64,000 bases of DNA from Fibrobacteria bacterium. Lineage in GTDB: Bacteria > Fibrobacterota > Fibrobacteria > UBA11236. A program made the translations under genes and the position numbers. Positions 606-64,000 of the stretch are shown here, in pieces. The notes beneath the pieces are model-generated. The model ran no database searches, was not told the DNA's origin, and saw only the letters and a program-made list of their open reading frames with translations. The stretch spans positions 64,001 to 128,000 of the forward strand of contig JBGTHM010000005.1 in NCBI GenBank assembly GCA_041746255.1, in the 5' to 3' direction. Positions within the stretch are counted from its first letter, which is position 1; the number at the start of each line of letters is the position of its first letter.

Positions 606-1772
606 ATGCAAAAAACCCATATCACGGCGCTAATCCTTTTCACCCTATCCGGATTACTTGGGGGCTGTGCGCATAGACCCCAATCCGGTGATTCCCACCA
701 GACAACTTCCCAAAACCTCAAGTTGAGCCGGTTCGATGCCCAAGCCTTAAGCGAATCGGCTCCCAAACGCGCCCGCGCCCAAATGGCGCCTGCGCCTGCC
801 ATGGAAGGCCAATCGGAATACGACCAAATGGACGAGGCGCCGGATGAATCCACCGAGCGCATGGTAGCCCATACCGGTGAGATTGAAATGCGTTCCACCG
901 AACCGAAAGCCGTTTTGGACACTGCCACCCATGTGATCTTGTCAGCGGGGGGTTATGTTGAAGAAAAACACGCGCATTTCGCCGTATTCCGGGTTCCGAC
1001 TCCTCATTTCGATACCGTTTTCGCCCGAATTCTCTTACTGGGACAGGTTGAGCGGCATTCCCGCCGCGCGGATGATATTACCGAAGCCTATACCGACAAC
1101 GATTTGCGTATCCGTACCATCCAAAAAACCCTTACGCGTCTGAGGGAATTGGTGAACCTGGCCAAAAAGGACAAGGAGAAAATTCAACTCCTGGCGGAAA
1201 TGAAGCGTCTCAGCGAACAGCTGCAATACCTGGAAAAAAGCCAGACGTTACTCAAAACCCGCGCCGAATACGCTCTCATCCGGGTCACAGTCAACCCCTA
1301 TCCCCTGGCTCCGGTGGTGCTCGACGTCCCGCTCTCCGGATTCGAATGGATAAGCACCCTCGGGCCCTTCGAGCGCGTCAAGCGGGGAAAACGCCTTCGC
1401 TTCGCAACACCGGAAAACATGGTGGTTCTGGAAAGGGGAGGCGCGAAAAATCCCTGGACGCTCGCCAGCGCCGGTGGAACCGCCGTCTGGGCTTCACGCT
1501 TGAAAAACCGTCCGCGCGGAGACACGCCTTATTGGAAACTTGCAGTTGCGGGAAGGCTGAAAGACTTGTACCAAGGCACCGAAGAATTGCAGGCGGGCGA
1601 TTATACCGTGCTGCGCTTTTTGGCGCAGGGACCCATTCCCTATGTCTATTTGGTCGGCCTCAAAACGGAGAAAAAATGCTTGCATGTGGTGGAGGCGTAT
1701 TTCCCGAATGCCGAGGAAGAAAACCGCTATGGGAAAGCCCTGCAGGAAAGTCTGAAAGCGGGGGCGTTATGA
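606..1772 (+). CDS. DUF4349-domain lipoprotein with extra C-terminal domain
   Basis: Lipobox LLGGC; DUF4349-like pattern (GGYVE...FRVP...DITEAYTDNDLRIR coiled coil). ATG 606 preferred to TTG 579. Confidence 0.75.
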   Translation: MQKTHITALILFTLSGLLGGCAHRPQSGDSHQTTSQNLKLSRFDAQALSESAPKRARAQMAPAPAMEGQSEYDQMDEAPDESTERMVAHTGEIEMRSTEPKAVLDTATHVILSAGGYVEEKHAHFAVFRVPTPHFDTVFARILLLGQVERHSRRADDITEAYTDNDLRIRTIQKTLTRLRELVNLAKKDKEKIQLLAEMKRLSEQLQYLEKSQTLLKTRAEYALIRVTVNPYPLAPVVLDVPLSGFEWISTLGPFERVKRGKRLRFATPENMVVLERGGAKNPWTLASAGGTAVWASRLKNRPRGDTPYWKLAVAGRLKDLYQGTEELQAGDYTVLRFLAQGPIPYVYLVGLKTEKKCLHVVEAYFPNAEEENRYGKALQESLKAGAL

Positions 1773-2449
1773 CCCATTCCGCCCGTGCGTTTAACTCCGT
1801 CGCAAGTAGGTTACCCCTGGGGTCGATGCTGTTGGCTATATGCCTGATCCTTCCCCAGCTCACGACCGCCAAGGATGCCGCCACCTTACCCGTGCGACCC
1901 GGACCTGCGCATACCTCCATATCCGCCACCAGCACGCTGATTACCCCGGACCGCGAAGCCGCGGCGAAGCGTATCATCGAAAAAACCAAGGCATTTCGCG
2001 GCTGGTTTCTCACGCACGACCAACACCGGTTGGAATTGCAGGTCCCGGCCCATCAAGCCGAAGCCCTGCTCGACTTCGCGCAAACCCAGGGTCATCAAGT
2101 CGACCGCAGCTTTTCCACCCTCGATAATTCGCAGCAGTGGTTGCAAGCCAAGTCTTCACTGGAAGCCAAGGAAGGATTGTTGGAAGACTACATGGCTATC
2201 CTGTCGAAAGCCGAAACCGAATCGATTTTCGCGGTGGAGCGCGCCATCAACGAGCTGCGCGCCGAAATCGAAGCCGCCAAAGGCCGACTCCGAAAAGTCG
2301 AACATGACATCGCTTATGCCCGCATCAACGTGTATTTCCGATTCCCGGACCGCCCCGAACCCGCGCGCGACGCAGCCTCTTCTTTTGACTGGGTGAACCG
2401 TCTCAACCTCGCCGATCTCTTGGAGGACTTCCGCCATGTCAAAGACTAG
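1769..2449 (+). CDS. DUF4349-domain secreted protein
   Basis: ATGA overlap with the upstream stop; signal peptide; LQVP...coiled coil...YARINVYF pattern parallel to the upstream gene. Confidence 0.7.
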   Translation: MTHSARAFNSVASRLPLGSMLLAICLILPQLTTAKDAATLPVRPGPAHTSISATSTLITPDREAAAKRIIEKTKAFRGWFLTHDQHRLELQVPAHQAEALLDFAQTQGHQVDRSFSTLDNSQQWLQAKSSLEAKEGLLEDYMAILSKAETESIFAVERAINELRAEIEAAKGRLRKVEHDIAYARINVYFRFPDRPEPARDAASSFDWVNRLNLADLLEDFRHVKD

Positions 2450-2885
2450 GAAGGCACTCTTGGCGCTGCTTCCCCTGCTCTTGCTGGGATGCGCCTCTTT
2501 CCGGGCTCCCGCGCCGGACGGTTTCGCGCCCTATGCAAATGAGCGAACCTTTCGCGCCGTCAGCGCGGACGGAGTCGTTTATCGCGTTAAGACTTTGAAG
2601 AACGACCCCAAAGCCGACCTGGCTTTCTGGCAAGAGGCCGTCAAGACTCGAATGGAAAAGGCGGGATATAAAATCGTGTCCGATTCCACGCTTAAGCTCC
2701 AGGGAAGCGAAGCCACCCTGCTGGAGTTGGCCGCTCCTTTCGGTGATCGCGATTACAGCTACCTGATTGCCCTGGCCATAAGCGGGAAGAAAATTCTCCT
2801 GGTGGAATCCGCGGGGGATATGCGCGATTTCGCTCCCCGAAAAGCGGCGGTGCTTCAGGCCGTTCGTGACATCCGCTTTCAATAA
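2436..2885 (+). CDS. Small lipoprotein, paralogue of the C-terminal domain of 606..1772
   Basis: Lipobox LLLGC; GGAGGA SD; overlaps the upstream gene; LKNDPKADLAFW vs LKNRPRGDTPYW similarity. Confidence 0.75.
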   Translation: MSKTRKALLALLPLLLLGCASFRAPAPDGFAPYANERTFRAVSADGVVYRVKTLKNDPKADLAFWQEAVKTRMEKAGYKIVSDSTLKLQGSEATLLELAAPFGDRDYSYLIALAISGKKILLVESAGDMRDFAPRKAAVLQAVRDIRFQ

Positions 2886-2945
2886 CCACATCTGCATCCG
2901 ATATTTTAATTCAACTGGCTTAATCCAAATTACGGAAATAAGGGT

Positions 2946-3443
2946 TTAATACCGAAGGTTCTCAATTTCTGGCCCCATTGTACAGTCGTCTGCGCAGTTA
3001 TAGGGACGGTACTGGCAGCGCGCAAGAATTCCATTTTTGGAAAATACCAGAGTTACCTCATTTTTTTTGCGTGGGAGGGTCAGCACCGAATCAATGCAGA
3101 AAGCGTATTGTTCATCTATGGTTCTGTAGTCCCCTTTGTTTTCAATTGATACTGTGTCGTACCGGACCTTATTTTGCAGTTTTAGTTTTTCCTCACCGGA
3201 GCCCGAATAAATGTGTATTTCGTACATCACATTGTTCCGAACAATAAATTCATACCGACTTCGACTTCCCGTCCAACTGGAATAGCTAGTTTCATAAGTG
3301 TAATTGCCTCCGTGCTTAGCCTTCAACTCTTCCCAAACAGCCCGACTTTCCTCGATATCCGCCACATATCTGGGTTTTAATCCATTGTCGTCCGTACATC
3401 CAAGCAGTAGCCACAGAATATTGAGGACAACCAATTTTTTCAT
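2946..3443 (-). CDS. Lipoprotein, DUF6174-like
   Basis: MKKLVVLNILWLLLGC lipobox; W..LK....NYTY, TIDE and C-terminal ADD motif; AT-rich. Confidence 0.6.
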   Translation of the reverse strand: MKKLVVLNILWLLLGCTDDNGLKPRYVADIEESRAVWEELKAKHGGNYTYETSYSSWTGSRSRYEFIVRNNVMYEIHIYSGSGEEKLKLQNKVRYDTVSIENKGDYRTIDEQYAFCIDSVLTLPRKKNEVTLVFSKNGILARCQYRPYNCADDCTMGPEIENLRY

Positions 3444-3476
3444 GTGATGAAAGTCGCCTCGCATGTTTTTTTTCCT

Positions 3477-3593
3477 TTACGTTCCCGCTTTTTCTCTGAT
3501 AAGTTGAAAGGCAAGGGCGGAATCGTTTTCCAAATGGTCTGGAGAGGCCGGCTCCAGCTTGATCAAAATGGTCGTGTCAACAATAAATTTCAC
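3477..3593 (-). pseudogene. Truncated PIN-domain N-terminus (38 aa)
   Basis: GTG 3593: MKFIVDTTILIKLEPASPDHLENDSALAFQLIREKAGT*. Matches the PIN-fold start motif hhhDT(N)hhh, then stops. Confidence 0.45.
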
Positions 3594-3780
3594 GCATTGA
3601 AAACCTAGGTTTTATTCATATCCTTTCAATGTGTTGCTCATCACCCCATAATGAGAATCCCTATGACGAATCGGGACCTGATATCCATTCTCATTTTGTG
3701 AACGATAATTCCCATAGGTGTCCTTAAAAATGGCCTTTTTGGGGTTATTATAAAGTATCGCACTCACAAAAGGATATCCT

Positions 3781-4623
3781 ATTCCGGATTTATTCCAGTA
3801 CACCGATTATCGCCTATTTTTACGCGATTACTATACCGAGAAAAAGGCGGCGTCCAAAAATTTCTCTTTTCAGAACTTTTCCCGCAAAGCCAAAATCGCC
3901 AGCAGCGGCTTTCTCCTGCATGTAATGAATGGAGAGCGGAACCTCACTCGCCCGGTACTCTTGAGAGTGGCCGAAGCCATGGAATTGGATCGTCCCCGCA
4001 CGGAATATTTCGAAGACCTGGTTTCTTTCAATCAAGCCAAGACCCAAACCGAAAAGGAATTCTACTTCGGCAAGATCATGGCCATTCGTCAATCCGTTCA
4101 AGTAAAATCACTCGAAGACCGGCAATACGAATTTTTTTCGGAGTGGTACCACTCCGTCATCCGTGAATTGGTGACGATTCTCCCAAAAGGATCTTCCACC
4201 GCGAGTATGGCAAAAAGGGTGGTTCCGGGAGTTTCGGCTTCGCAAGTGAAGCGTTCTTTGGAACTCATGCTGGAACTTGGAATCCTGAAAAAGAAACCAG
4301 GAGGCTCATACGTCCAAAGCGATCCGTTTATCGGGGGAGCGACGCAATCGATAACCGACCTGGGCATTACCCGCTTCCAAAAATCAATGCTGCAGGTGGC
4401 ATCGCAGTCCTGGGAGAACTTTTCCGAAAAAGAAGTCAAGACAAGTACCGTCACCTTTACCATGTCGGATGCCTTAGCGCCCGTCATCGCTCAGGAAATA
4501 AAAGCCTTTCGCGCGCGCCTGTTGCATCTAATCCAACACGATGACAAACCCGCGAACCGCGTCTATCACCTCAACGTCCAACTGTTTCCCGTTTCCAGGA
4601 AAACCGGAGAGGAGCATTCATGA
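3781..4623 (+). CDS. TIGR02147-family HTH protein (probable ATT start)
   Basis: Frame open from 3754. IPDLFQYTDYRLFLRDYY...FSFQNFSRKA..SSGFLLHVMNGERNL, FFSEWYHSVIREL and VYHLNVQLFPVS are family hallmarks. AAAGGA SD lies just upstream of ATT 3781. Confidence 0.8.
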   Translation: MPDLFQYTDYRLFLRDYYTEKKAASKNFSFQNFSRKAKIASSGFLLHVMNGERNLTRPVLLRVAEAMELDRPRTEYFEDLVSFNQAKTQTEKEFYFGKIMAIRQSVQVKSLEDRQYEFFSEWYHSVIRELVTILPKGSSTASMAKRVVPGVSASQVKRSLELMLELGILKKKPGGSYVQSDPFIGGATQSITDLGITRFQKSMLQVASQSWENFSEKEVKTSTVTFTMSDALAPVIAQEIKAFRARLLHLIQHDDKPANRVYHLNVQLFPVSRKTGEEHS

Positions 4624-6401
4624 ACCCGATATCCCGCCTCCAAAAATTTTCTATCGGCCTGGCGGCAATGCTGCTGGTCGCATGCAATTCCGAGGAACCC
4701 AACGTCACTGGAACGGGGTCTACCACCGAATCGGGCGTAGTGGTGGGACAAATTTTTTCACACGCGGATGGAAAACCCGTTTCCGGAGCCAGGGTCGCGC
4801 TGTATCCCGTCGATCATGTACCTGCAGCTATTCTCCGCAAATCTTCGGCAACCGTGGAAGGAATTACCGATGAAAATGGATGGTACCGGTTTAAAAACGT
4901 ACCGGCGGGTCATTACAATGTCGCGGCCTCGAAAGACAGCCTAAAATCCTATCAGGACTCCTTGGAAATCCTGGAGTCGGGAACGGACGCCGGAATCGAT
5001 ACCCTAAAAGAAACCGGTTCGCTGGCGGGTCACATCGAAATGCAGTCCGGGGATGACGCCCGCACGGTGCTGATCCTGGTTCTCGGCACCAATTCCCTGT
5101 TCGTGCCTCAAGATGCGTCAGGGCACTTCACGCTTCGCGGTTTGGCCGGAGGAAAATACCGGGTGCGGTTTCTCAGTACGCTTTCTGACTATTCGCCGCT
5201 CGATACGATGGTGGAAATCCGGCAGGGCAAATCCGATAGCCTGGAAAATCCCATACGGCTCAATTATACGGGAACCCCCGCGGTACAGGGTCTCAAGGCG
5301 GAGTGGGATGGCGATTTGCAGAGAGTTCTCTTGAGTTGGCATCCCACCGATACCGCCCAAATCGCCGGGTACTATGTCTACCGCGCCGCCGGAAATGGCT
5401 CCATCGGTTCGATACCGCTCAATGCCGACCCTATTCCGGATACGTCGTTCTCGGATACCACGGCGAAGGTGGACAGCCAATACGTTTATGCGGTGAAAGC
5501 CGTGGACAAAAACGGAAACCCTTCGCTAATGCTCTCCTCCGTCGCCAGTGTCGCCACCCCGGCGAATTACACCTTTTCCCGGAAAATCGTTCCCGAAGGG
5601 TGGTCGCACGGTTTGACAACGCTGTCAGTGAACGCGGGAAAAATATATTGGATGCAAGACCAGCAGGTGGCGGTTTACGATACATCGGGCGTCCTCGTGT
5701 CGACATTCGGTTCCGACCATCCCGGAGAGCTGAACCAACCCATGCTTCTCAAAGTGATTCACGACACAGTTTATGTGCTGGATAATCCCGAGGGAATGAC
5801 GCGGCACGATAACAAATTCGGAGACATCGTAATCAAAAAATATTCGCCGCAGGGAACCTTTATGGATAGTCTTTCCATCAAAGGCATTTTTCAATCATTG
5901 TTTCGAAGTAACGGGGATTTTTGGATAACTGAGGACGGTGTGTTATTCGCGGGTAGCGATGACATGCTTTACGTGCGCCATCCCGATGGGAACATCGATT
6001 CAGTCCAATCCACGGTGCGGCCTCCTTTTTTCAATATTACCCTCGCTTGGGCGCCGGATGAAGACCGCCTCCTGGTGATAAGCGGAATTTTCATTTATAC
6101 GCTCGGCACGGGCGGCACGGGCGACACTCGCATCGCGGTGATCGAAAAGGATTTGTCGCTGGCAAGGCTGGACTCGGCCACGTACAAATTGAACGCCGCC
6201 ACGGTTGACGATACCGGAAGGATTTGGGTGGTGCGCGATGATGCAAGGATACAAACCTTGACGAATAATCGTGAAGTCATCCGGAATATTTCTTTGCCGA
6301 AGGCCGAATACCGGGATATTGTAATCGACGAGGAGGACAATATTTATTTATACAATTCCACCCCAAATGCCATACTGATTTACAGAAAACGGGAAAAGTA
6401 G
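4620..6401 (+). CDS. Lipoprotein with carboxypeptidase-regulatory-like (Ig) domains, FN3 and a probable beta-propeller
   Basis: Lipobox LLVAC; GSTTE linker; TDENGWYRF; LSW...GYYVYR...YVYAVKAVD FN3 motif; ATGA overlap with the TIGR02147 gene. Confidence 0.75.
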   Translation: MNPISRLQKFSIGLAAMLLVACNSEEPNVTGTGSTTESGVVVGQIFSHADGKPVSGARVALYPVDHVPAAILRKSSATVEGITDENGWYRFKNVPAGHYNVAASKDSLKSYQDSLEILESGTDAGIDTLKETGSLAGHIEMQSGDDARTVLILVLGTNSLFVPQDASGHFTLRGLAGGKYRVRFLSTLSDYSPLDTMVEIRQGKSDSLENPIRLNYTGTPAVQGLKAEWDGDLQRVLLSWHPTDTAQIAGYYVYRAAGNGSIGSIPLNADPIPDTSFSDTTAKVDSQYVYAVKAVDKNGNPSLMLSSVASVATPANYTFSRKIVPEGWSHGLTTLSVNAGKIYWMQDQQVAVYDTSGVLVSTFGSDHPGELNQPMLLKVIHDTVYVLDNPEGMTRHDNKFGDIVIKKYSPQGTFMDSLSIKGIFQSLFRSNGDFWITEDGVLFAGSDDMLYVRHPDGNIDSVQSTVRPPFFNITLAWAPDEDRLLVISGIFIYTLGTGGTGDTRIAVIEKDLSLARLDSATYKLNAATVDDTGRIWVVRDDARIQTLTNNREVIRNISLPKAEYRDIVIDEEDNIYLYNSTPNAILIYRKREK

Positions 6402-55606: not shown

Positions 55607-57028
55607 CTATCCCGAAATGTACATGGACTCTACCAGTATGTCCGGAACCTTGACCGAGGTAAAGGCTTCGGAATATTGATGTGAGAATCCCCGAATTGCC
55701 AGCAACAGGTCGAAGTAATTGGAATTGAGAGTGACTTTGTCGATGGGACGAATCCGCCTACCCTGCTCGTAGAAAAAACCCTGCGCTCCGATGGAGATTT
55801 CGCCGGAAACCGCCGAGCAACCGGAACCGCCTTCAAGCTTGGTAACCAGGAAGCAACTGGGATAACTCCCAAGCAACTCATCCAACGTTTGGCTTCCCAG
55901 CGGTACGATGAAGTTGGCGAAGCCCGTGCCCGCTTTACCGGAATAACCCCGTGAGCCATTACCTGTGGGAGCATGTCCCGCTTTTTTGGCCGACTCCAGA
56001 TTATAGAGATAGGTTTTCAATACCCCGTCCTTAACGACTTCCAAGGGGGAGGTAACCACGCCTTCTCCATCGAAGAGGTGCGATCCCGGCGCTCCGGGAA
56101 TATGGGGATCGCTTATCAGGTGGAATTCCGGGACGGCGATAGCCTGTCCCACCTTGCCCGCAAGCCGCGACTGTCCTTTTTGTACCACTTCCGCGAAATA
56201 GGGAGATGAGAACATGGAAAGGATTTGCGGACTGATGCGGTTGGAAAAAACCACGGGATACCGTTCGGTTTCCAGGGGCTCCGCTCCCAAAAGCTCCACC
56301 GCCCGCTCCACGGCCTTGGCCGCCATATAACCGGGGTCGAATACCGAGAAGGATCGGCCTCCGGTGGAATAGCTTCCCATTTTCTTGCTTTCGCCTTCTT
56401 TGGCGACGACGCCGATACCTCCGGATACCACGTTGGACCGCGAACGGTAAAAAACTCCGTTGGAATTACGCACCATCGACATGCCCGACGATCGGCTTAC
56501 GCCTAGATAGGGTATGTTTTCGATACGCGAATCGCCTTGTTTTGCCAGAGCCTCCAGTTCCAAACCCAAGGCCTTCATTTGATCCAAGGTCACCGATTCC
56601 AAATCGGGATTGAAGGATTGGAGATCGATTTCCGGGAGTGGGCACGGAACCGGTAAATCGAGATCGAGAGGATCGGTCAAACGCGCATGGCTGATTGCGT
56701 CGCGAACCGTCTGCTCAATGGCCTCGCGCGACATTTTTTCGGTAAACGCGAAGCCGGGACGCCCACCCTTGAAAAGCCGTATGCCGATACCCCGTGAGTT
56801 GGAGATTTCCGTGGTTTTTACCTTGGATTCGAAAAGCTCCAAGCCCATGGCTTCGGATTCGCCGGCCACTGCGTCGTATTTATCGGCGCCTTGGCGTGCA
56901 GCCTCTTCGCAAATGAATTCGAGTGCTTGTTCGGGAGTGAATCCCTTTTGCCTCGAATCACCATTACTTGCATCGCCTTTAGCTTTCGCGGCCGCTTCGC
57001 CACCCGCGGTATTTCCCCTGGCGCTCAT
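55607..57028 (-). CDS. pmbA: PmbA/TldE-family protein
   Basis: GIGIR, FDGEG, V.DGVLKTYL, TGN; lacks HExxxH; paired with tldD. Confidence 0.85.
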   Translation of the reverse strand: MSARGNTAGGEAAAKAKGDASNGDSRQKGFTPEQALEFICEEAARQGADKYDAVAGESEAMGLELFESKVKTTEISNSRGIGIRLFKGGRPGFAFTEKMSREAIEQTVRDAISHARLTDPLDLDLPVPCPLPEIDLQSFNPDLESVTLDQMKALGLELEALAKQGDSRIENIPYLGVSRSSGMSMVRNSNGVFYRSRSNVVSGGIGVVAKEGESKKMGSYSTGGRSFSVFDPGYMAAKAVERAVELLGAEPLETERYPVVFSNRISPQILSMFSSPYFAEVVQKGQSRLAGKVGQAIAVPEFHLISDPHIPGAPGSHLFDGEGVVTSPLEVVKDGVLKTYLYNLESAKKAGHAPTGNGSRGYSGKAGTGFANFIVPLGSQTLDELLGSYPSCFLVTKLEGGSGCSAVSGEISIGAQGFFYEQGRRIRPIDKVTLNSNYFDLLLAIRGFSHQYSEAFTSVKVPDILVESMYISG

Positions 57029-58410
57029 CTTCCCCCCACCAGAATGCTATCCACCTTGATGGTGGGTTGCCCCACCGTAACCGGGACGGAACCCGATGAG
57101 GCGCCGCACATGCCTGCGGCCAGTTCCAAATCGTCGCCCACCATCGAGATGAGGGGAAGAATGTCCGCTCCCTTGCCTATCAGCGTGGCCCCGCGCACCG
57201 GATCGGAAATCTTACCGTTTTTGATAAGATAAGCCTCCTCCACGGAAAAGTTGAACTCCCCCGTGGCGGGATTCACCGAACCCCCACCCATTTTTTTGGC
57301 GTAGAGACCGTCGGTTACGCTCGCCAGCATTTGCGCCACCGTATGCTCGCCTTTGTCGATATAGGTGTTGCGCATGCGCGATACGGGCGCGTATTGGTAG
57401 GACTCGCGGCGCGCGCTGCCGGTTAATCCCATTCCGGTATCCTTCGCTCCTACCCTATCGGACAGGTAACTTTGCAATTTCCCGTTTTTAATGAGCACGG
57501 TACGTTGCGCCGGGTTGCCTTCGTCGTCCACGTTGATGGACCCCCACGAATTGGCGATGGTGCCGTCGTCGACGGCCGTCACCGCGCTATGGGCTATCAT
57601 TTCATTCATTTTGCCTACGAAGGGAGAGGCCTTGCGGCGAATGGCCTCGGTTTCCAACAAATGGCCGCAGGCCTCGTGAAAAATAACTCCGCCGAAACCG
57701 TTGCCCATGATGACCGGCATCTTTCCGCCCTTGACATAGCCCGCGGCCAGCATGAGTATGGCCCGCTCCGCTGCGCTGCGGGCATAGCCCGCAACATCGA
57801 GGGTGTCGAAGAATTCGAAGCCGCGCATCGCTCCCGGCGCTTCGGTGGCCACGAAAATCTCCCCCTTGTCCTCGGCCGACACGCTCACGGAAAAACGGCA
57901 GCGCGTGCGCGCATCCTCAGTCCAAAGCCCATCGCTGTTGCAAATGAGAATGGTGCTGGTCACGTCGGCCGCGCGCGCGGATACTTGTACGATTTTCGGG
58001 GAAAATGCCCGCGCGGTTTCGTCGGCGGTTTTCACCAAAGCCAGCTTGTCGTCCTGCCCCAGCTTGCGCGGATCGCGGGAGATGATGTGGTTGTTTGCAA
58101 AAACCTTGCCTACCAGTTTGGTGGTCGGCTCGGACGAATCGGATACGAGAATGCCCCGGCTGCGCGCCAGATTATCGATGAGCCGGATGATATGGCTCTC
58201 GTCCTCATTGCTGGTATGGGCGTATAGGACTTCCGTTCCATAAACAAGGCGGATACCCAGGCCATAATCGGTGCCGGCGGTAACCGATTCCACCCGCCTA
58301 TCACGATAGGAGAGGGAAGCGTGACGGGTTTCCTCCTCATAGATTTCCACGAAATCCGCATTTCTGTCCAATCCCGCCTGGAGAATCCTCCCCGCTTTCA
58401 GCTTATCCAT
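57025..58410 (-). CDS. tldD: TldD metalloprotease
   Basis: HEACGH, DDEG, RMRNTY, GMCGA...VPVTVGQP. Confidence 0.92.
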   Translation of the reverse strand: MDKLKAGRILQAGLDRNADFVEIYEEETRHASLSYRDRRVESVTAGTDYGLGIRLVYGTEVLYAHTSNEDESHIIRLIDNLARSRGILVSDSSEPTTKLVGKVFANNHIISRDPRKLGQDDKLALVKTADETARAFSPKIVQVSARAADVTSTILICNSDGLWTEDARTRCRFSVSVSAEDKGEIFVATEAPGAMRGFEFFDTLDVAGYARSAAERAILMLAAGYVKGGKMPVIMGNGFGGVIFHEACGHLLETEAIRRKASPFVGKMNEMIAHSAVTAVDDGTIANSWGSINVDDEGNPAQRTVLIKNGKLQSYLSDRVGAKDTGMGLTGSARRESYQYAPVSRMRNTYIDKGEHTVAQMLASVTDGLYAKKMGGGSVNPATGEFNFSVEEAYLIKNGKISDPVRGATLIGKGADILPLISMVGDDLELAAGMCGASSGSVPVTVGQPTIKVDSILVGGR

Positions 58411-58469: not shown

Positions 58470-59750
58470 TCAATTGCGGGAAGGCGCTTTTCGATCCAAC
58501 CACGCGAGTAACCCCAGCAGAGGAAACATCAACGCAGGTAATAGAATCGCTGCCCTGAAAGTGGTCCGTGCGGCCGACTCCAAAACCGCCTGCATTTTAT
58601 CCCCGGATAGCGCTAAAGCGGCTTCTGCTCCTCCCGCAGCCTCGATAGTCGCCATATCGTAGACGCGGCCCATCCAGGGGACGGCGAAGAAAATCGCAAT
58701 CAGGCCGACCATACCCAGCATGGACATTGCCAGAGTGACGCTACGGGGAAAACGATCTGCCGCACAGGCGATGATGGTAGGCCAAAGGAGACTGACACCG
58801 GCGCCCCATAACCCAGCCCCTAAAAACCCGTACCCAGGCGAATTCGCCTCGCTAAGCACCGCTAGCCCCAATACCGCGAGGAAAGTCGACGCTGCGAGCA
58901 AGGCCATCGGGTGTATTCCACGCACCACTCCTGCGCCTAGCCTGGCAAGGGTCATGACCACACCGGTAAAAACCAGCAGCCAAATGCCCCTTATTCCCGC
59001 GGAATTGCTGAGGACCAAATCCATCCACTGACCGGGCGCGATTTCCGCCGCTCCCGCGAAAAAAATGAGTAATGCCCAGAGAAAAAAGGCCGGCGTGACG
59101 AGCTCCCGCCAACGGGCGCGGTGGGTTCGTTTATCCGTATGCTCGGCCATGGGAATAAACGCCATTCGACGGATCCACAACGACAACAATAAAGGCAGTG
59201 CCATGGTGGTGATGAGCTGTGCCTTCCAGTCCATGCCCGAATTCTGCAATACTACCGCCACCACACCTCCCACCACCAGCCCCATCGGCCAGGATGCATG
59301 CAGTAAGTTGATACGTTGTGCGCGGGCCTTGGGATAAAGTTCGGCTATTAGGGGGTTGATGGCGGATTCAATAATCCCGTTTGACCACCCGATTAGAAAC
59401 ATTCCCATCCACACCGCAATGAAGACACCCCAACCTTCCGCAAACACATCCGCTCCCAAAATCAAAAAGACTCCCACGACCATAATCGCTATCCCACCTT
59501 GAAAGGCCCGGCGGTATCCGATTGCGGGGAGGAAAGCGCCTGCCAAGGGGAAACAGAAAACCATGCCCAAAGCGCCGGCCGCCAATACTGAACCCAACAA
59601 TTCCGTGGCTCGCAATGCCGAAATGGGCTCGAATAGCTCTACTTTCAAAGGCAGCGCTATGGCACTTATGAGACTGAAGCGATAAGCGGTGGCGGCCAGC
59701 ATGAGCATGGCCATAATGAGTAAGGATACGCCGTGGGGCTTAGAACGCAT
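58470..59750 (-). CDS. MFS transporter
   Basis: About 12 TMs; NGIIESAINPLIAELYP, NLLHASWP, WPT motifs. Start ATG 59750 or TTG 59768. Confidence 0.8.
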   Translation of the reverse strand: MRSKPHGVSLLIMAMLMLAATAYRFSLISAIALPLKVELFEPISALRATELLGSVLAAGALGMVFCFPLAGAFLPAIGYRRAFQGGIAIMVVGVFLILGADVFAEGWGVFIAVWMGMFLIGWSNGIIESAINPLIAELYPKARAQRINLLHASWPMGLVVGGVVAVVLQNSGMDWKAQLITTMALPLLLSLWIRRMAFIPMAEHTDKRTHRARWRELVTPAFFLWALLIFFAGAAEIAPGQWMDLVLSNSAGIRGIWLLVFTGVVMTLARLGAGVVRGIHPMALLAASTFLAVLGLAVLSEANSPGYGFLGAGLWGAGVSLLWPTIIACAADRFPRSVTLAMSMLGMVGLIAIFFAVPWMGRVYDMATIEAAGGAEAALALSGDKMQAVLESAARTTFRAAILLPALMFPLLGLLAWLDRKAPSRN

Positions 59751-59795
59751 GCCGGGAATAATCGACAATTATTCCCGTCCGTGCAAGGTTCTGAT

Positions 59796-60290
59796 TTAAT
59801 CGGGCTTGGGGGCGTCGGGGAACAGCGAGTCGATTTGATCGGCCAATTGCTGCCCATGGGTGACGTCGGGCATCATGTCTTCCATCTCGTTTTCCCTGAC
59901 CATTTGCAGGGCTTCTCCCAATTTAACCTTGGCTTGACCCGCCACCATTTTGACCAGGCCGAGATTGGTACGATCATCAAATATCAGTACCATGATCACA
60001 TCTTCATCGACAAGCGATATGTGAATATTCTCCTTTTCCCCTTGATGGAACATCATGGAGAACTCCGACTCGCCGATAAGGGCCGCGATAGCCTTGGTGG
60101 ACGCGAAGGTTCCCGCGGCCAAAGCGGCCAAGCTGGTCACGTCGAAACGGGGATTGAAACCGACCTGGGCGATGAGGTTTCCGTCCTTGTTGATGAGCAA
60201 CACATAGCTGGAGGCGCTCTCGGTGATGAGATGGGAAAGGATCTTATTCAGCCTTTCCACGTCCTCCTTGAAGAGTACGAAATCTCCCAT
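59796..60290 (-). CDS. mglB: MglB-like roadblock/LC7 protein (GAP)
   Basis: LLINKDGNLIA, SLAALAAG, LIGESEF..MFHQGEKENIHIS, TNLGLVK, closely resembling Myxococcus MglB. Confidence 0.88.
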   Translation of the reverse strand: MGDFVLFKEDVERLNKILSHLITESASSYVLLINKDGNLIAQVGFNPRFDVTSLAALAAGTFASTKAIAALIGESEFSMMFHQGEKENIHISLVDEDVIMVLIFDDRTNLGLVKMVAGQAKVKLGEALQMVRENEMEDMMPDVTHGQQLADQIDSLFPDAPKPD

Positions 60291-60293
60291 CGC

Positions 60294-62015
60294 CTATTTC
60301 TCTTTTCCGAACAGCCCGCCGAACAGGCCCTTCTTCTTTTCGGAAGGAAGGGGGATGCGGCGCGTCTTGAAATCTCCCTGGCGTTGGTCTTCGTAGGTCG
60401 ACACGATGCCGCTTTGATCGGATCGCGGTGGGGGCTGAATAAAAGGAGAGGGTCGCGGCTGCTGTTCCGGCGGGGGATAATTCCCCTGCTGACCGCCGCC
60501 TGGACCGAATGGATTGGGATTGTCCTGCCGATTTTGCGGATTACCCTGCCCGGGTTGGGGACTGCCGAATGGAGACGGATTGAACCCGGCATTGTTTTGA
60601 CGATCCATGGTCGGTAAGGCAGGGCCTCCCGGTCCGGCCGGGGGAAATTTTGGAGGAAACCCTCCCGGGCCAGGGCCAGGGGGTTGACCGCCGGGGGATC
60701 CAAAAGGCGAGCCCTGCGGGGCTTGCGGTGGATACGGCCGTTGCGGTGCGGAACCTCCGAAGGGATTTTGCGGTGGCGAACCAAAGCCTCCCTGTTGCGG
60801 GGGAGAACCGAATCCTCCCTGTTGCGGCTGGGACCCGAACCCGCCTTGTTGGGGTGCGGAACCGAAACCATCTTGCTGCGGTGCGGAACCGAATCCGCCT
60901 GTTTGCGGTGGAGATCCGAAACCTCCCGGGGGACCTCCCGGAGCCGGACGCGGAGGCATGCCACCCGATCCGCCTGGATTGCCAAATCCTTCTACGAAGG
61001 GGGCGACGGGAATATTCGGATTCTGCCCGGAAAACCCTCCCGGCGGAGCAGGGGGTCGATTTCCCATTCCCGGATTCAAAAACGGTGAACCGGGCTGTGG
61101 CGGCGGAGCTGCGAAGGGATTGGAGGCCGGTTGCTGGCCACCGGGGGAACCGGAATGCCCCCCTTGGAGAAAGGGATTGGGCGACTGTTGCGAAGCGGGC
61201 TTAGGGGGTGCAGGAAAGCCGCTGTTTTGGGCAAAACCACCCTGGGCGGGAGCGCCGAATCCCGCTTGTCCCGGAAAAGATTGGCCGCCTTGCTGCGGAA
61301 AACCGGATTGCGGCGGCATGGCCTGCGGAGCCGGCCTGGCCGGTGGACTTTGTGGTGCGGAGGTTGGCGCCGGACGGCTTTGTCCCGGGCGCATTGCCGG
61401 TGGACGGCGGGTTCCGCCCTGGTATCCCGCGTACTTGGCGTTGAACCTGTCTATGACGGACTTGCCGATGGCTTTCAAAGTCGTGAAGACGCCGACACCC
61501 GTTGAAGCCACCGCTTCGAAGTAAGGCGATTGGTATTTGTTCAGAAAACTGCTGAGTTCCTCCACCGACATCACGTTAGGCAAATCACGCTTGTTGAACT
61601 GCAATACCATGGGAATAGTATCGAGAGAGTGACCGTATTCCCGAAGGTTCTCCTCAAGATTGGCGAAACTTTCCAGGTTCTCCTGCAGCTTATCGGCTTG
61701 CGAATCCGCAACGAACACCACTCCATCCACACCGCGCAGCACCAATTTGCGTGTGGCATTGTAATAAACCTGTCCTGGTACGGTATAGAGCTGGAATTTG
61801 GTGGAAAAGCCTTTGATGGAACCCAGATCAAGGGGGAGGAAATCGAAAAACAGGGTGCGATCGGTTTCCGTTGCGAGCGATACCATTTCGCTCTTTTCCT
61901 TGTTGGGAACCTTACGGTGGATGATCTGCAGATTGGTGGTCTTCCCGCTTAAACCGGGCCCATAATAGACAATCTTGCAGCTTATTTCTCGGGTAGCGTA
62001 ATTAATCGATGCCAC
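60294..62015 (-). CDS. mglA: MglA small GTPase fused to a ~380-aa low-complexity tail
   Basis: KIVYYGPGLSGKTTNL, TETDRTLFFDF, TVPGQ, NKRD; then a P/G/Q/F-rich tail ending KKKGLFGGLFGKEK. Confidence 0.92.
   Translation of the reverse strand: MASINYATREISCKIVYYGPGLSGKTTNLQIIHRKVPNKEKSEMVSLATETDRTLFFDFLPLDLGSIKGFSTKFQLYTVPGQVYYNATRKLVLRGVDGVVFVADSQADKLQENLESFANLEENLREYGHSLDTIPMVLQFNKRDLPNVMSVEELSSFLNKYQSPYFEAVASTGVGVFTTLKAIGKSVIDRFNAKYAGYQGGTRRPPAMRPGQSRPAPTSAPQSPPARPAPQAMPPQSGFPQQGGQSFPGQAGFGAPAQGGFAQNSGFPAPPKPASQQSPNPFLQGGHSGSPGGQQPASNPFAAPPPQPGSPFLNPGMGNRPPAPPGGFSGQNPNIPVAPFVEGFGNPGGSGGMPPRPAPGGPPGGFGSPPQTGGFGSAPQQDGFGSAPQQGGFGSQPQQGGFGSPPQQGGFGSPPQNPFGGSAPQRPYPPQAPQGSPFGSPGGQPPGPGPGGFPPKFPPAGPGGPALPTMDRQNNAGFNPSPFGSPQPGQGNPQNRQDNPNPFGPGGGQQGNYPPPEQQPRPSPFIQPPPRSDQSGIVSTYEDQRQGDFKTRRIPLPSEKKKGLFGGLFGKEK
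60768..60926 (-). repeat. Six 27-bp coding tandem repeats (GGFGSxPQQ)
   Basis: GGFGSPPQT GGFGSAPQQ DGFGSAPQQ GGFGSQPQQ GGFGSPPQQ GGFGSPPQ, with synonymous divergence between units. Confidence 0.9.
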
Positions 62016-62043
62016 AGCGTTATACCTCGTTTGCCAAATGCAA

Positions 62044-62379
62044 TTATTTGATTAGCGGCGCTACCTGCGCGATTTCGACACGTATCAATCCGGTATTAGC
62101 CTGACTTTCGGCCATTACCACCAGATACCCCAATTCCACGGCCTGTACAAAAAACTTTCCCTCGCTCGCTTCGATCATGGTCTGGATGAGTTTCCCCGAT
62201 TGGGAGGCCGCGATTATCTTATCGGCCATTTGTTGCGCCGAAACGATGAGCGCACCAATAAACTCCGAGGGAACGGGAGTTCGGAACAGGGAGACGATTT
62301 CTATCCCGTCCGCGCTTACCACGCTCGAACCCCTGATTCCCTTTATCTGATTAAGTCTTTCTAATATACTTGATATCAT
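62044..62379 (-). CDS. Roadblock/LC7 protein (MglC/MglB-like)
   Basis: L..LNQIKGIRGSSVVSADG, G.L.QTMIEASEG, ANTGLIR. Confidence 0.85.
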   Translation of the reverse strand: MISSILERLNQIKGIRGSSVVSADGIEIVSLFRTPVPSEFIGALIVSAQQMADKIIAASQSGKLIQTMIEASEGKFFVQAVELGYLVVMAESQANTGLIRVEIAQVAPLIK

Positions 62380-62385
62380 CGGATT

Positions 62386-62817
62386 TCAGCCTTTGGCATA
62401 TCCCTTCGCCTGCAGAAGTTGCGCGACAGCCTGTGCGCCGCGCTCGATTCTCAACTTAAATAATTCATAGCTACCTTTTGTCCCCGCAATCATGAGAAAA
62501 AAGCGGCAGCCTGCATCCAAATTTATGATCTGGTAGAACTTATTATCGCTAAATACGATCTGACTTTCCAGGGCTCCGAACCCTAAGTCCTTGAATTGCC
62601 TCAAATTGGCCAGATAGCGGTCTAAAAAATAGGGCGATTCAATGAGCATGCTTTCCTGCGTATTCTCTCCCATGGCAACCACCAAGCATTCCTGGCTGTA
62701 CACCACGGCCCCGTCCATGCCGTTTACCAGGCTTAAATAGCCCAGACAGGTATCCAGATCGTGGGAGTCGACCATATTGGCCGCTCCCCCGGTAGCGGGT
62801 GAATTCGGATTAGACAT
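62386..62817 (-). CDS. Divergent roadblock-like protein
   Basis: L..L..VNGMDGAVVYS.E.LVV, LGFGALESQIV; overlaps the upstream gene. Confidence 0.55.
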   Translation of the reverse strand: MSNPNSPATGGAANMVDSHDLDTCLGYLSLVNGMDGAVVYSQECLVVAMGENTQESMLIESPYFLDRYLANLRQFKDLGFGALESQIVFSDNKFYQIINLDAGCRFFLMIAGTKGSYELFKLRIERGAQAVAQLLQAKGYAKG

Positions 62818-63667
62818 GGGAAGATTCCGTTCCGGGAAGGGAGGTAGCTGCCTGGGTGCGCTCACGAAAGATTTTTTCCAGTCGCACGAGCGAAAGCTGC
62901 GCTTTTTGCAGATTCTCGGATATCAAAGCAACGCCATACTCTCCCCGGAACAAGCTGAAAAGCGTGAAACGTTCGAATTGCAAGACAATCCGATGAATGC
63001 CTCCGCCTTCCAAGTCCCACACCGCGGTGGATAAATCACCGGGTAAAATTTTATCCAGAACGTCAATCAATCCGTCAAGGTTTTCAGAAATACCGGCCTT
63101 CCGCCTGACCCCCGTTTTCTGGTTCCAACCGAAAAATTCCAGCGTTCCGGCCTCGTCCAAAAGCTGTCGGTACGCTTCGGGATCCAGCGGATCTTCCGAG
63201 GAGTGGGATGGCCCCTTGTCCAAGGCGTCGACAGGATTTTCCGTAGGCGAAGCGGCCGGGGAGATTACTTCAGAAACAGCGGAAGGGGTAGCGGGGGCAG
63301 CCTCCGAACGCGAGTTTTGATACTCCTCCCAAATCACCGCCTGTAACAAAGAGAGGTAACTGGCTTGATTCGGGTCGACTCTAAGCCGATGTAACAGCTG
63401 CTCTTTGGGTTCGTCGTACCGGCCCGACCGGGTTTGCATGAAAACTTCCATGCAGAACAATACCTCTTGCATTCCGGGTTCGGTTCGGGTCGGCAAGCCC
63501 GCCAATACGTGACGCGCCAAATCGATTTGGCCCGATTTAATCTGGGTATAGGCGTAAGCGAGAGTGCTGGAGGCCTGCAACCGGTTGCGGCAAACGGGGT
63601 TGTCATAGACGGTTTCGGCGACGGTCGCAACGCGGACCGCGGATATTCCCGGTTCCTTTACAGTCAT
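62810..63667 (-). CDS. TPR-like helical protein with C-terminal roadblock-like domain
   Basis: LAYAY...G..DLA..VL helices; P/A/S/E linker; C-terminal L.GGGIHRIVLQFE...VALIS pattern. Confidence 0.5.
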   Translation of the reverse strand: MTVKEPGISAVRVATVAETVYDNPVCRNRLQASSTLAYAYTQIKSGQIDLARHVLAGLPTRTEPGMQEVLFCMEVFMQTRSGRYDEPKEQLLHRLRVDPNQASYLSLLQAVIWEEYQNSRSEAAPATPSAVSEVISPAASPTENPVDALDKGPSHSSEDPLDPEAYRQLLDEAGTLEFFGWNQKTGVRRKAGISENLDGLIDVLDKILPGDLSTAVWDLEGGGIHRIVLQFERFTLFSLFRGEYGVALISENLQKAQLSLVRLEKIFRERTQAATSLPGTESSHV

Positions 63668-64000
63668 TTTATCGTGAATTCTCCCGTCTCATACTTCTCA
63701 TAGACAAAGTACCTTCCCCCGCGCTTTTTAAGTTCTTCTCTTGTCAATATTTTTTCCTTTTCCATTTCCAGCAAATCTTCGGGAAGCCTATCCCGCCGGG
63801 CCGCGAAATCGACCACGAATATTTCCACGTTTTCGGCCTGCAACCGCTGATGGATAACGGCCGAGTAATCCCCCGCTCCATCAGTGGCCAGAAAGCTCAT
63901 GGCCGCGAATCGGAAAAGCAAAGTCATCAGAAAAATAAGCGCCGCGGTACCCAGTAGCAGCGCGGTTTTCTGATCTTTTTCGGATTGGACCGAAACCGGC
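63664..64000 (-). CDS. Membrane-anchored hypothetical protein (3' part; start outside window)
   Basis: Frame open from 63999 (PVSVQSEKDQKTALLLGTAALIFLMTLLF...); ATGA overlap with the next gene. Confidence 0.6.
   Translation of the reverse strand, partial: PVSVQSEKDQKTALLLGTAALIFLMTLLFRFAAMSFLATDGAGDYSAVIHQRLQAENVEIFVVDFAARRDRLPEDLLEMEKEKILTREELKKRGGRYFVYEKYETGEFTIK

Follow-up and report, generated by a model that had tools for sequence, protein, structure and literature searches.

An MglA GTPase with a long disordered tail and a conserved C-terminal cassette in Fibrobacterota

The mglA gene and the spread of its tail

We analyzed a stretch of 64,000 nucleotides (hereafter the window) from a Fibrobacteria bacterium (GenBank assembly GCA_041746255.1, contig JBGTHM010000005.1, positions 64,001 to 128,000), and describe here the gene at 60294..62015, which encodes the small GTPase MglA extended by a tail of 378 residues. 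The protein appears to consist of three parts, namely a G domain, a disordered leash of about 325 residues rich in proline, glycine and glutamine, and a putative C-terminal targeting cassette of about 40 residues. In window coordinates, the gene and its parts are:

60294..62015, minus strand: mglA, 573 codons plus stop, GTG start, the sole MglA of the genome
61431..62015, minus strand: G domain, residues 1-195, with P-loop GPGLSGKTT, switch I DRTLFFDF with intrinsic Arg53, TVPGQ (Thr78, Gln82) and NKRD
60456..61430, minus strand: disordered linker rich in P, G, Q, S and F, residues 196-520, drawn from composition, Phe list, spacing tests, AlphaFold2 (AF2) and GC content
60768..60927, minus strand: tandem array of a 27-nt unit in 5.9 copies (Tandem Repeats Finder, 75% matches, score 141), encoding GGFGSxPQQ repeats, residues 361-420
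60387..60413, minus strand: cassette motif 1, acidic-hydrophobic SGIVSTYED, residues 535-543, colinear with MFFTSVD/YFTSVN of other families
60345..60371, minus strand: cassette motif 2, basic-proline FKTRRIPLP, residues 549-557, colinear with KRPVNP and similar to YPTRRMP elsewhere
60297..60338, minus strand: cassette motif 3, terminal KKKGLFGGLFGKEK, residues 560-573, a basic cluster plus hydrophobic dyads at i, i+1, i+4, i+5

Read on the plus strand, 60294..62015 is broken throughout by stops. In phmmer searches of the PDB, residues 3-190 aligned without gaps to Myxococcus xanthus MglA (6h17/5ymx; E 3.8e-76, 260 bits) and matched Thermus thermophilus MglA (3t12; E 2.3e-72), and the residues of all four motifs were invariant across 49 aligned homologues. 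Specifically, the P-loop follows the G1 pattern GxxxxGK[ST] (GPGLSGKTT at residues 19-27), switch I is the same as in 6h17/5ymx and includes the invariant R53 (M. xanthus numbering), the G3 motif carries Thr in place of the usual Asp together with the catalytic Gln (T78 V79 P80 G81 Q82), and the G4 motif NKxD is present as N141 K142 R143 D144. The Thr78 oddity of the MglA G3 motif is on record in the accessible part of PMC3000849. A Pfam scan of the mglA product returned generic Ras, Arf and Gtr1 matches only, and this was the one MglA match in the whole 4.59-Mb genome (100% complete by marker genes). We therefore read the first ~195 residues, which the original prediction had called a canonical MglA, as a predicted catalytically complete G domain of an MglA polarity GTPase. 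At 573 aa, the protein lies outside the length given for group 1 MglA (a single domain of ~195 aa, and at most 240 aa in the published census); because the 240-aa limit is set by convention on length and says nothing about catalysis, we file it as an MglA with an added tail.

Two circumstances could have made the tail trivial, namely an error of assembly or its absence from close relatives, and neither applies. A contig from another assembler (Logan, 8787 nt, from a public run that is possibly the source sample) covers 60170-62500 with zero differences, and a second sample of the same study yielded three identical fragments. Among 41 related genomes, 29 had an MglA match, and every best match lay in a long open frame (288-780 aa), the shortest of these being cut by contig ends. 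We extended the length comparison to an even sample of 151 genomes from the phylum, which is Fibrobacterota by the names of the relatives (Fibrobacterota, Chitinivibrionales, Chitinispirillaceae). MglA was found at E <= 1e-30 in 128 of these genomes, and in 122 of the 128 the best match lay in a frame of at least 299 aa. To judge by coordinates, five of the six exceptions (G011, G084, G111, G134, G131) either sit at a contig end or are divided over separate contigs, and the remaining one (G125) is a partial match. With the independent assembly identical and long frames in the relatives and across the phylum, an assembly artefact was rejected. In addition, at least 7998 MglA homologues with lengths of 315-1003 aa were found in a large protein collection. 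The length of the tail ranges from about 120 to 650 residues, and the linker can barely be aligned between homologues.

We found no description of a long-tailed MglA in the literature searched, with subscription-only papers and supplements lying outside that search, so the earlier view that the architecture is undescribed stands; longer forms of MglA had, however, been seen before and set aside. As stated in the accessible part of Wuichet & Sogaard-Andersen 2015, of 488 MglA-clade sequences the 449 shorter than 240 aa were kept and the rest excluded. On that account, a published census of prokaryotic small GTPases dropped the sequences above 240 aa, and the long-tailed class is therefore missing from the current classification. 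The original prediction had also held that characterized MglA proteins are single domains of ~200 aa, which agrees with the PDB chains (195-203 aa) but not with a table in the accessible part of Fremgen et al. 2010, which lists four 'MglA2' of 225-313 aa, including one of 313 aa from Fibrobacter succinogenes. The accessible part of Galicia et al. 2019 discusses disordered C-termini of MglB and not of MglA. We conclude that the tailed MglA is real, conserved, and undescribed in the literature searched.

A few MglA genes depart from the usual arrangement. A dozen or so genomes in families f14 and f17 (e.g. L038, L039) also encode a second, short MglA paralogue, in frames of 198-295 aa (197-206 aa as read), so that tailed and untailed MglA coexist in those genomes. 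One long homologue (P0013, 910 aa) contains Robl_LC7 and may be an MglA-MglB fusion or a read-through, and in another (P0077, 389 aa) FliMN_C replaces the usual cassette at the C-terminus. Besides its normal long-tailed copy, one genome also has an MglA-like G domain (54% identity) within a 1598-aa frame (G158:C8:56250-56834, L037).

The C-terminal cassette and its likeness to the MinD terminus

The cassette of about 40 residues appears to be the most conserved part of the tail, and it stands in frame at the end of tails that differ widely in length and composition. From the 120 long homologues listed, we drew three tail classes:

Class a (the clade of the window's protein), n=23 including the window's protein: C-terminus SGIV[ST]TYED..FKT[KR]KLPxPxEKKKGFFDGLFKK[DE]K; linker with F 7-9% and G 9-25%
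Class b, n=44: C-terminus MFFTSVDTDRQKKPxKRPVNPRTQQQKGFLSKFFNKD; linker Q-rich
Class c, n=23: C-terminus AFLTPEEL..YPTRRMPLGPGQ; linker P/A-rich, without the hydrophobic end

An alignment of classes a and b shows them to be colinear, with an acidic-hydrophobic motif, a basic-proline motif, a basic cluster and a terminal G-h-h-x-x-h-h (h, hydrophobic). This terminal pattern occurs in its strict form in 77 of the 120 long homologues; the other 43 comprise the 23 members of class c, eight with a variant lacking the Gly and 12 that are truncated or otherwise different. When we compared the MglA sequences of ten further families, the hydrophobic end was present in six (f8, f11, f14, f15, f16, f17), as it is in the window's own family f1, and absent in f5, f7, f4 and f2. 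Specifically, the Fibrobacter-like family f5 has proteins of 313-328 aa ending in DDDIELRPYVPKKK, family f7 has a similar end, f4 has the class c end, and the end of f2 is different. The 313-aa protein of f5 has the length of the F. succinogenes 'MglA2' tabulated in the accessible part of Fremgen et al. 2010. Across the phylum, the constants appear from these comparisons to be a complete MglA, a disordered tail and a terminal cassette, with a MinD-type end in most families, the window's own included.

To judge by a profile of the last 48 residues, the cassette appears to be specific to this MglA clade, save for the MglB of family f8 described below. The profile found 79 proteins at E <= 0.001 among 1.84 billion representative proteins. 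In 74 of the 79, the cassette lies at the C-terminus, and these are all MglA proteins or 5'-truncated tail fragments; in most matches the module ends no more than three residues from the C-terminus. The other five are weak multi-stretch matches in unrelated long proteins, not at the C-terminus, and were taken as spurious. No non-MglA protein family carried the cassette among the 1.84 billion representatives, and the same search returned no tailed MglB save a doubtful 59-aa fragment (P0150). Long-tailed MglB genes were seen in the loci of two families (L044:5158-6042 and L048:3273-4172, both minus strand). The f8 MglB (295 aa) has a tail of its own ending in LYFTSMN..KHKSEQGLFSRFFNRSKRDS, which repeats the YFTS...GLFSRFF cassette of the MglA of the same genome, and the f16 MglB (300 aa) has a basic, amphipathic-looking end.

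The terminal motif resembles the membrane-targeting sequence of MinD. The C-terminus of Escherichia coli MinD (NC_000913) reads RFIEEEKKGFLKRLFGG / EEKKGFLKRLFGG, with the targeting end KKGFLKRLFGG, and that of this MglA reads PSEKKKGLFGGLFGKEK. In both proteins, the site is the extreme C-terminus and a basic cluster is followed by G-h-h-x-x-h-h: KKK-G-LF-GG-LF in this MglA against KK-G-FL-KR-LF in MinD, that is, basic residues and then hydrophobic dyads with helical periodicity. The ends of relatives (KKGFLSKFFNK or KKKGFFDGLFKK) are likewise comparable to MinD. The two proteins differ in that the peptide is here joined through a leash of about 325 residues to a Ras-like GTPase, whereas in MinD it sits directly on a dimerising ParA-type ATPase, and in that the two middle residues are Gly in this MglA, which weakens the predicted amphipathicity. 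Of 9938 six-frame open reading frames (ORFs) of at least 100 aa in the same genome, 4 have the pattern [KR]..G-h-h-x-x-h-h in their final 16 residues, MglA among them, and no MinD was found above the model cut-off in that genome. On the Fauchere-Pliska scale, the hydrophobic moment of this terminus is 0.42 (rank 8 of 369 tail windows), compared with 0.55 for the MinD end and a median of 0.55 (range 0.48-0.61) for the termini of 76 relatives. On the Wimley-White scale, the 8-mer GLFGGLFG scores -3.34 kcal/mol vs -1.56 for GFLKRLFG of MinD, and it is the most favorable interfacial 8-mer of the tail and the second in the whole protein.

Composition and phenylalanine pattern of the linker

The tail (residues 196-573, 378 aa) consists of P 24.1%, G 20.4%, Q 12.2%, S 7.9%, F 7.4%, A 6.9% and N 4.5%, and charged residues account for 16 of the 318 positions from 196 to 513. 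The linker DNA has a GC fraction of 0.59-0.66 vs 0.48-0.53 in the flanks. Of the 28 Phe in the tail, 24 are preceded by G or P, 14 stand in FG, four in NPF and four in SPF; along the leash, the window's family has about one Phe per 13 residues, almost always as GF or PF. No second ORF of such composition was found in 120-residue windows of the genome's six-frame ORFs, the one match being MglA itself. An AF2 model of the full protein (49-row alignment; mean pLDDT, the per-residue confidence, 51.5) was poor even for G-domain residues 1-95, and its lack of secondary structure in the linker (block pLDDT 41-58) lends correspondingly weak support to disorder. A curvature sensor of the ALPS (amphipathic lipid packing sensor) type spanning the whole tail was rejected, as 24% proline precludes a long amphipathic helix.

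To assess how the aromatic residues are spaced, we compared the coefficient of variation (CV) of the gaps between them, linker by linker, with 1000-5000 shuffles of the same residues. The spacing in this linker was more even than in the shuffles (z -2.12, p 0.003), and remained so when the six-unit tandem repeat was collapsed to one unit (z -1.83, p 0.012). All 23 class a linkers fell below the shuffle mean (z -0.86 to -2.67), 12 of them at z < -2. For class b (n=44) the mean z was -0.78 with two linkers below -2, and for class c (n=23) it was +0.23 with none below -2. Moreover, the Phe fraction over the 23 class a linkers (269-451 aa) was 7.6 ± 0.6%, and its CV of 0.07 was below that of every other residue (P 0.12, A 0.18, G 0.27, S 0.29, N 0.33, Q 0.34). 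A fixed Phe density set against a drifting spacer composition is what a sticker-and-spacer design would predict. The tails of other families are Q-rich or P/A-rich, with Phe at 2-5% and without even spacing.

These results agree with the original prediction in that the tail comprises about 380 residues, chiefly G, P, Q, F, S, N and A, with few charges and regularly spaced Phe. The proposed likeness to a sticker-and-spacer polymer holds in part. A disordered, low-charge region with aromatics set among polar spacers is indeed found, and aromatic number and even patterning look constrained within class a but not in the other two tail classes, so that an FG-rich tail with evenly spaced Phe would be a trait of the window's family and not of the phylum. 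The account of an FG/NPF tail was likewise right as to composition but overlooked the conserved C-terminal cassette with its MinD-like end, which points to tethering as the primary role.

The gene row and possible roles of the tail

The mglA gene sits in a co-directional row on the minus strand, which continues past the window end:

59796..60290, minus strand: mglB, 164 aa, Roadblock/LC7 (Pfam PF03259, E 3.6e-11), 4 nt downstream of mglA
62044..62379, minus strand: Roadblock/LC7 protein, 111 aa (Pfam PF03259, Robl_LC7, E 3.5e-08), directly upstream of mglA and conserved in family loci
62386..62865, minus strand: p159, 159 aa, predicted Roadblock fold (AF2 pLDDT 77.5 and Foldseek)
62810..63667, minus strand: p285, 285 aa, no Pfam match at E 0.01, weak TPR_19 match (E 0.033)
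63664..64000, minus strand: 3' part of a gene for a PATAN/DUF4388 protein, 392 aa (Pfam PF14332, E 2.2e-26), running past the window end
L013:2722-4878, minus strand, just past the window end: p718, 718 aa, predicted polytopic membrane protein with at least five hydrophobic segments, weak TPR matches and Cys-rich CxxC...CxxC
L013:4907-6343: sigma-54 activator, at the upstream end of the row

A Roadblock-type mglB gene is thus coupled to mglA, although its product scored 80.7 bits against the NCBIfam MglB model, below the cut-off of 200. The AF2 model of p159 matched 7f8m_D in Foldseek (E 6e-06) and M. xanthus MglB 6hjm with a TM-score of 0.76-0.79 on the target; p159 had no Pfam match, and hhalign comparisons with the Roadblock and MglB profiles were not significant (probability 1% and 0.1%). 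With p159 included on the strength of its model, three predicted Roadblock-fold genes lie in a row around mglA. The three are reminiscent of MglB/MglC or Ragulator stacks. The ORFs of p285 and p159 overlap by 56 nt (62810-62865); as homologues of p159 measure 142-173 aa, its true start is probably further downstream. Hydropathy predicts a single membrane helix in the PATAN protein, at the hydrophobic segment of residues 294-312. Among 11 sampled loci from ten other families, mglB was downstream of mglA in nine, and the p718-PATAN pair was upstream of it in six. PATAN neighbors of MglA/MglB, including some group 1 members, are on record in the accessible part of PMC4316618, and PATAN response regulators bind the type IV pilus motor in Synechocystis according to the accessible text of bioRxiv 10.1101/2021.06.11.447907. 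Four PilT-family ATPases of the window's own genome score above the model cut-off.

Together, the constants seen across the phylum, the MinD-type end and the conserved membrane-protein neighbors suggest a membrane-tethered polarity switch on a long leash. We propose that the protein is an MglA/MglB switch that a disordered leash holds at the membrane, and that its Phe stickers, weak but multivalent, contribute avidity; to this reading we give roughly an even chance of being correct. The terminal peptide would bind the inner membrane weakly and reversibly, and so place the switch alongside its GTPase-activating protein MglB, the two further Roadblock-fold proteins, the PATAN protein and the polytopic membrane protein, from where it would probably steer type IV pili. 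Motifs 1 and 2 of the cassette probably dock a protein partner, because both survive where the hydrophobic end has been lost. The evenly spaced GF and PF of the leash may serve as weak stickers for multivalent association with itself or with partners. A single copy of the MinD membrane-targeting sequence binds too weakly, and dimerisation supplies the affinity, according to the accessible part of PMC8155659; because one MinD-type peptide would likewise be too weak alone, clustering would give the avidity needed for cooperative binding to the membrane or the pole. In this proposal of a tethered switch, condensation would be accessory to tethering rather than the primary role. A more far-reaching form, which we consider doubtful, is that clustering of the tails through the Phe stickers depends on the GTP state and multiplies the membrane affinity of the many weak anchors; at the polar membrane, MglA would then condense in two dimensions, and this condensate would draw in MglB and the pilus motors or keep them out. 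A complex prediction of the G domain with two MglB chains and the C-terminal 60 residues gave a score of 0.00 and is uninformative either way.

Several observations weigh against a tethered switch. The amphipathicity of this terminus depends on the scale used: its Eisenberg moment is 0.04-0.16 (rank 233-357 of ~368 tail windows), compared with 0.27-0.47 for the MinD end and a median of 0.43 for the termini of 76 relatives, a low value that arises because the two middle residues are Gly. AF2 shows no helix at the terminus (pLDDT 58 for block 561-570, in a model that is poor overall); the MinD peptide, too, is reported to fold only on the membrane. Several families keep the tail and motifs 1 and 2 without the hydrophobic end (the one ending in DDDIELRPYVPKKK, another in YPTRRMPLGPK), and the membrane peptide is therefore not the universal purpose of the tail. 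Lastly, the 23 tails of the window's family are related, so that the Phe statistics overstate independence.

The tail could instead act mainly as a condensate scaffold, with the FG/PF residues driving phase separation, MglA building its own polar compartment, as the original prediction suggested, and the cassette secondary. The Phe fraction held at 7.6 ± 0.6% in the 23 linkers, aromatics spaced more evenly than shuffles in 23/23, the very low charge (16/318) and the disorder of the region in AF2 are in keeping with this, and Martin and colleagues reportedly found in 2020 that aromatic valence and even patterning govern the phase behavior shown by prion-like domains. We nevertheless consider such a scaffold unlikely, as a proline content of 24% is atypical of phase-separating prion-like domains, FG-richness and even spacing are limited to one family and missing from classes b and c, and what is conserved phylum-wide is the presence of the tail plus the cassette. 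Moreover, no other protein of the genome has a like composition and could serve as a co-condensing partner, and aromatics make up 8% here vs the 19-43% given for the prion-like domains studied in PMC11820118. The tail may also be a neutral low-complexity expansion, that is, tolerated repeat growth with no function, in line with the 27-nt tandem array as a recent expansion, the wide range of tail length (~120 to 650 residues) and the barely alignable linker. This seems very improbable to us given that, of the 128 genomes of the phylum in which an MglA was found, 122 have a tail, that the frame is kept through to the conserved terminal cassette, and that the Phe fraction is tightly held.

A further idea is that the leash sets only the reach of a cassette that binds protein and not lipid, its hydrophobic end included, the partner being PATAN, p718, a Roadblock dimer or a pilus ATPase. 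The conserved C-terminal peptide of FtsZ docks partners in this way after a disordered linker. Motifs 1 and 2 persist in families without the hydrophobic end, the row of possible partner genes is conserved, and the MglB that carries the same cassette in one family would fit a shared docking site. What makes docking alone improbable in our judgment is that the terminal motif follows the MinD lipid-binding pattern residue class by residue class, including the preceding basic cluster, and that its variable residues lie at positions that would face away from a membrane.

When compared with known systems, the nearest is the MglA/MglB module of M. xanthus and T. thermophilus (PDB 6h17, 5ymx, 6izw, 3t12), which shares a G domain alignable end to end, an adjacent Roadblock-type MglB and a PATAN neighbor. 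The characterized MglA proteins are soluble single domains of 195-203 aa, whereas here 378 residues with a terminal membrane-type peptide are added, and the row has two extra Roadblock-fold genes and two membrane-protein genes. Eukaryotic Ras/Rho proteins such as K-Ras4B likewise combine a small GTPase with an unconserved flexible C-terminal region (the hypervariable region), a basic cluster and a hydrophobic anchor, polybasic and lipid in their case. Here, however, a peptide would take the place of the prenyl group as anchor, the flexible region is ~15x longer and there is no CAAX box; the resemblance would thus be one of function by analogy and not of homology. FtsZ and SSB share the order of a globular nucleotide- or DNA-binding domain, a variable disordered linker and a short conserved targeting peptide. 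The SSB linker is rich in G, Q and P with scattered aromatics, ends in an acidic tip and is reported to phase-separate. These two proteins differ in their folded domains and partners, and in model organisms neither is known to have a MinD-type end, although the literature lists an FtsZ from Mycoplasma that has an amphipathic helix. FG-nucleoporins and prion-like domains are similar in low charge, disorder, Phe in FG/GF context with polar spacers and even aromatic spacing, but here proline reaches 24% and aromatics 8%, the protein is bacterial and cytoplasmic, and the trait belongs to one family of the phylum. FG-nucleoporins have transport receptors as partners, and none are known for this tail.

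MglA is the model for a Ras-like switch in bacterial polarity, and the mechanistic work has all been on soluble 195-aa proteins. In Fibrobacterota, the sole MglA has a long disordered tail with a putative targeting cassette, and a membrane-type end in most families, a design for which eukaryotic Ras/Rho use a hypervariable region together with a lipid. Should the tether prove real, membrane recruitment would be built into the switch, independent of polar landmark proteins; if the two-dimensional condensate is true, a bacterial Ras-like GTPase would make its own membrane-bound polarity compartment. Nature also provides, in the closely kept Phe density and spacing of one family, a comparative way to ask if the clustering of a bacterial signaling GTPase is tuned by the valence of its stickers.

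In addition, we observed a TldD/PmbA metallopeptidase pair and a major facilitator superfamily transporter directly downstream of mglB on the same strand (55607-58410 and 58470-59768, both minus strand). A TldD-like gene also follows mglB in two family loci (L003, L004).

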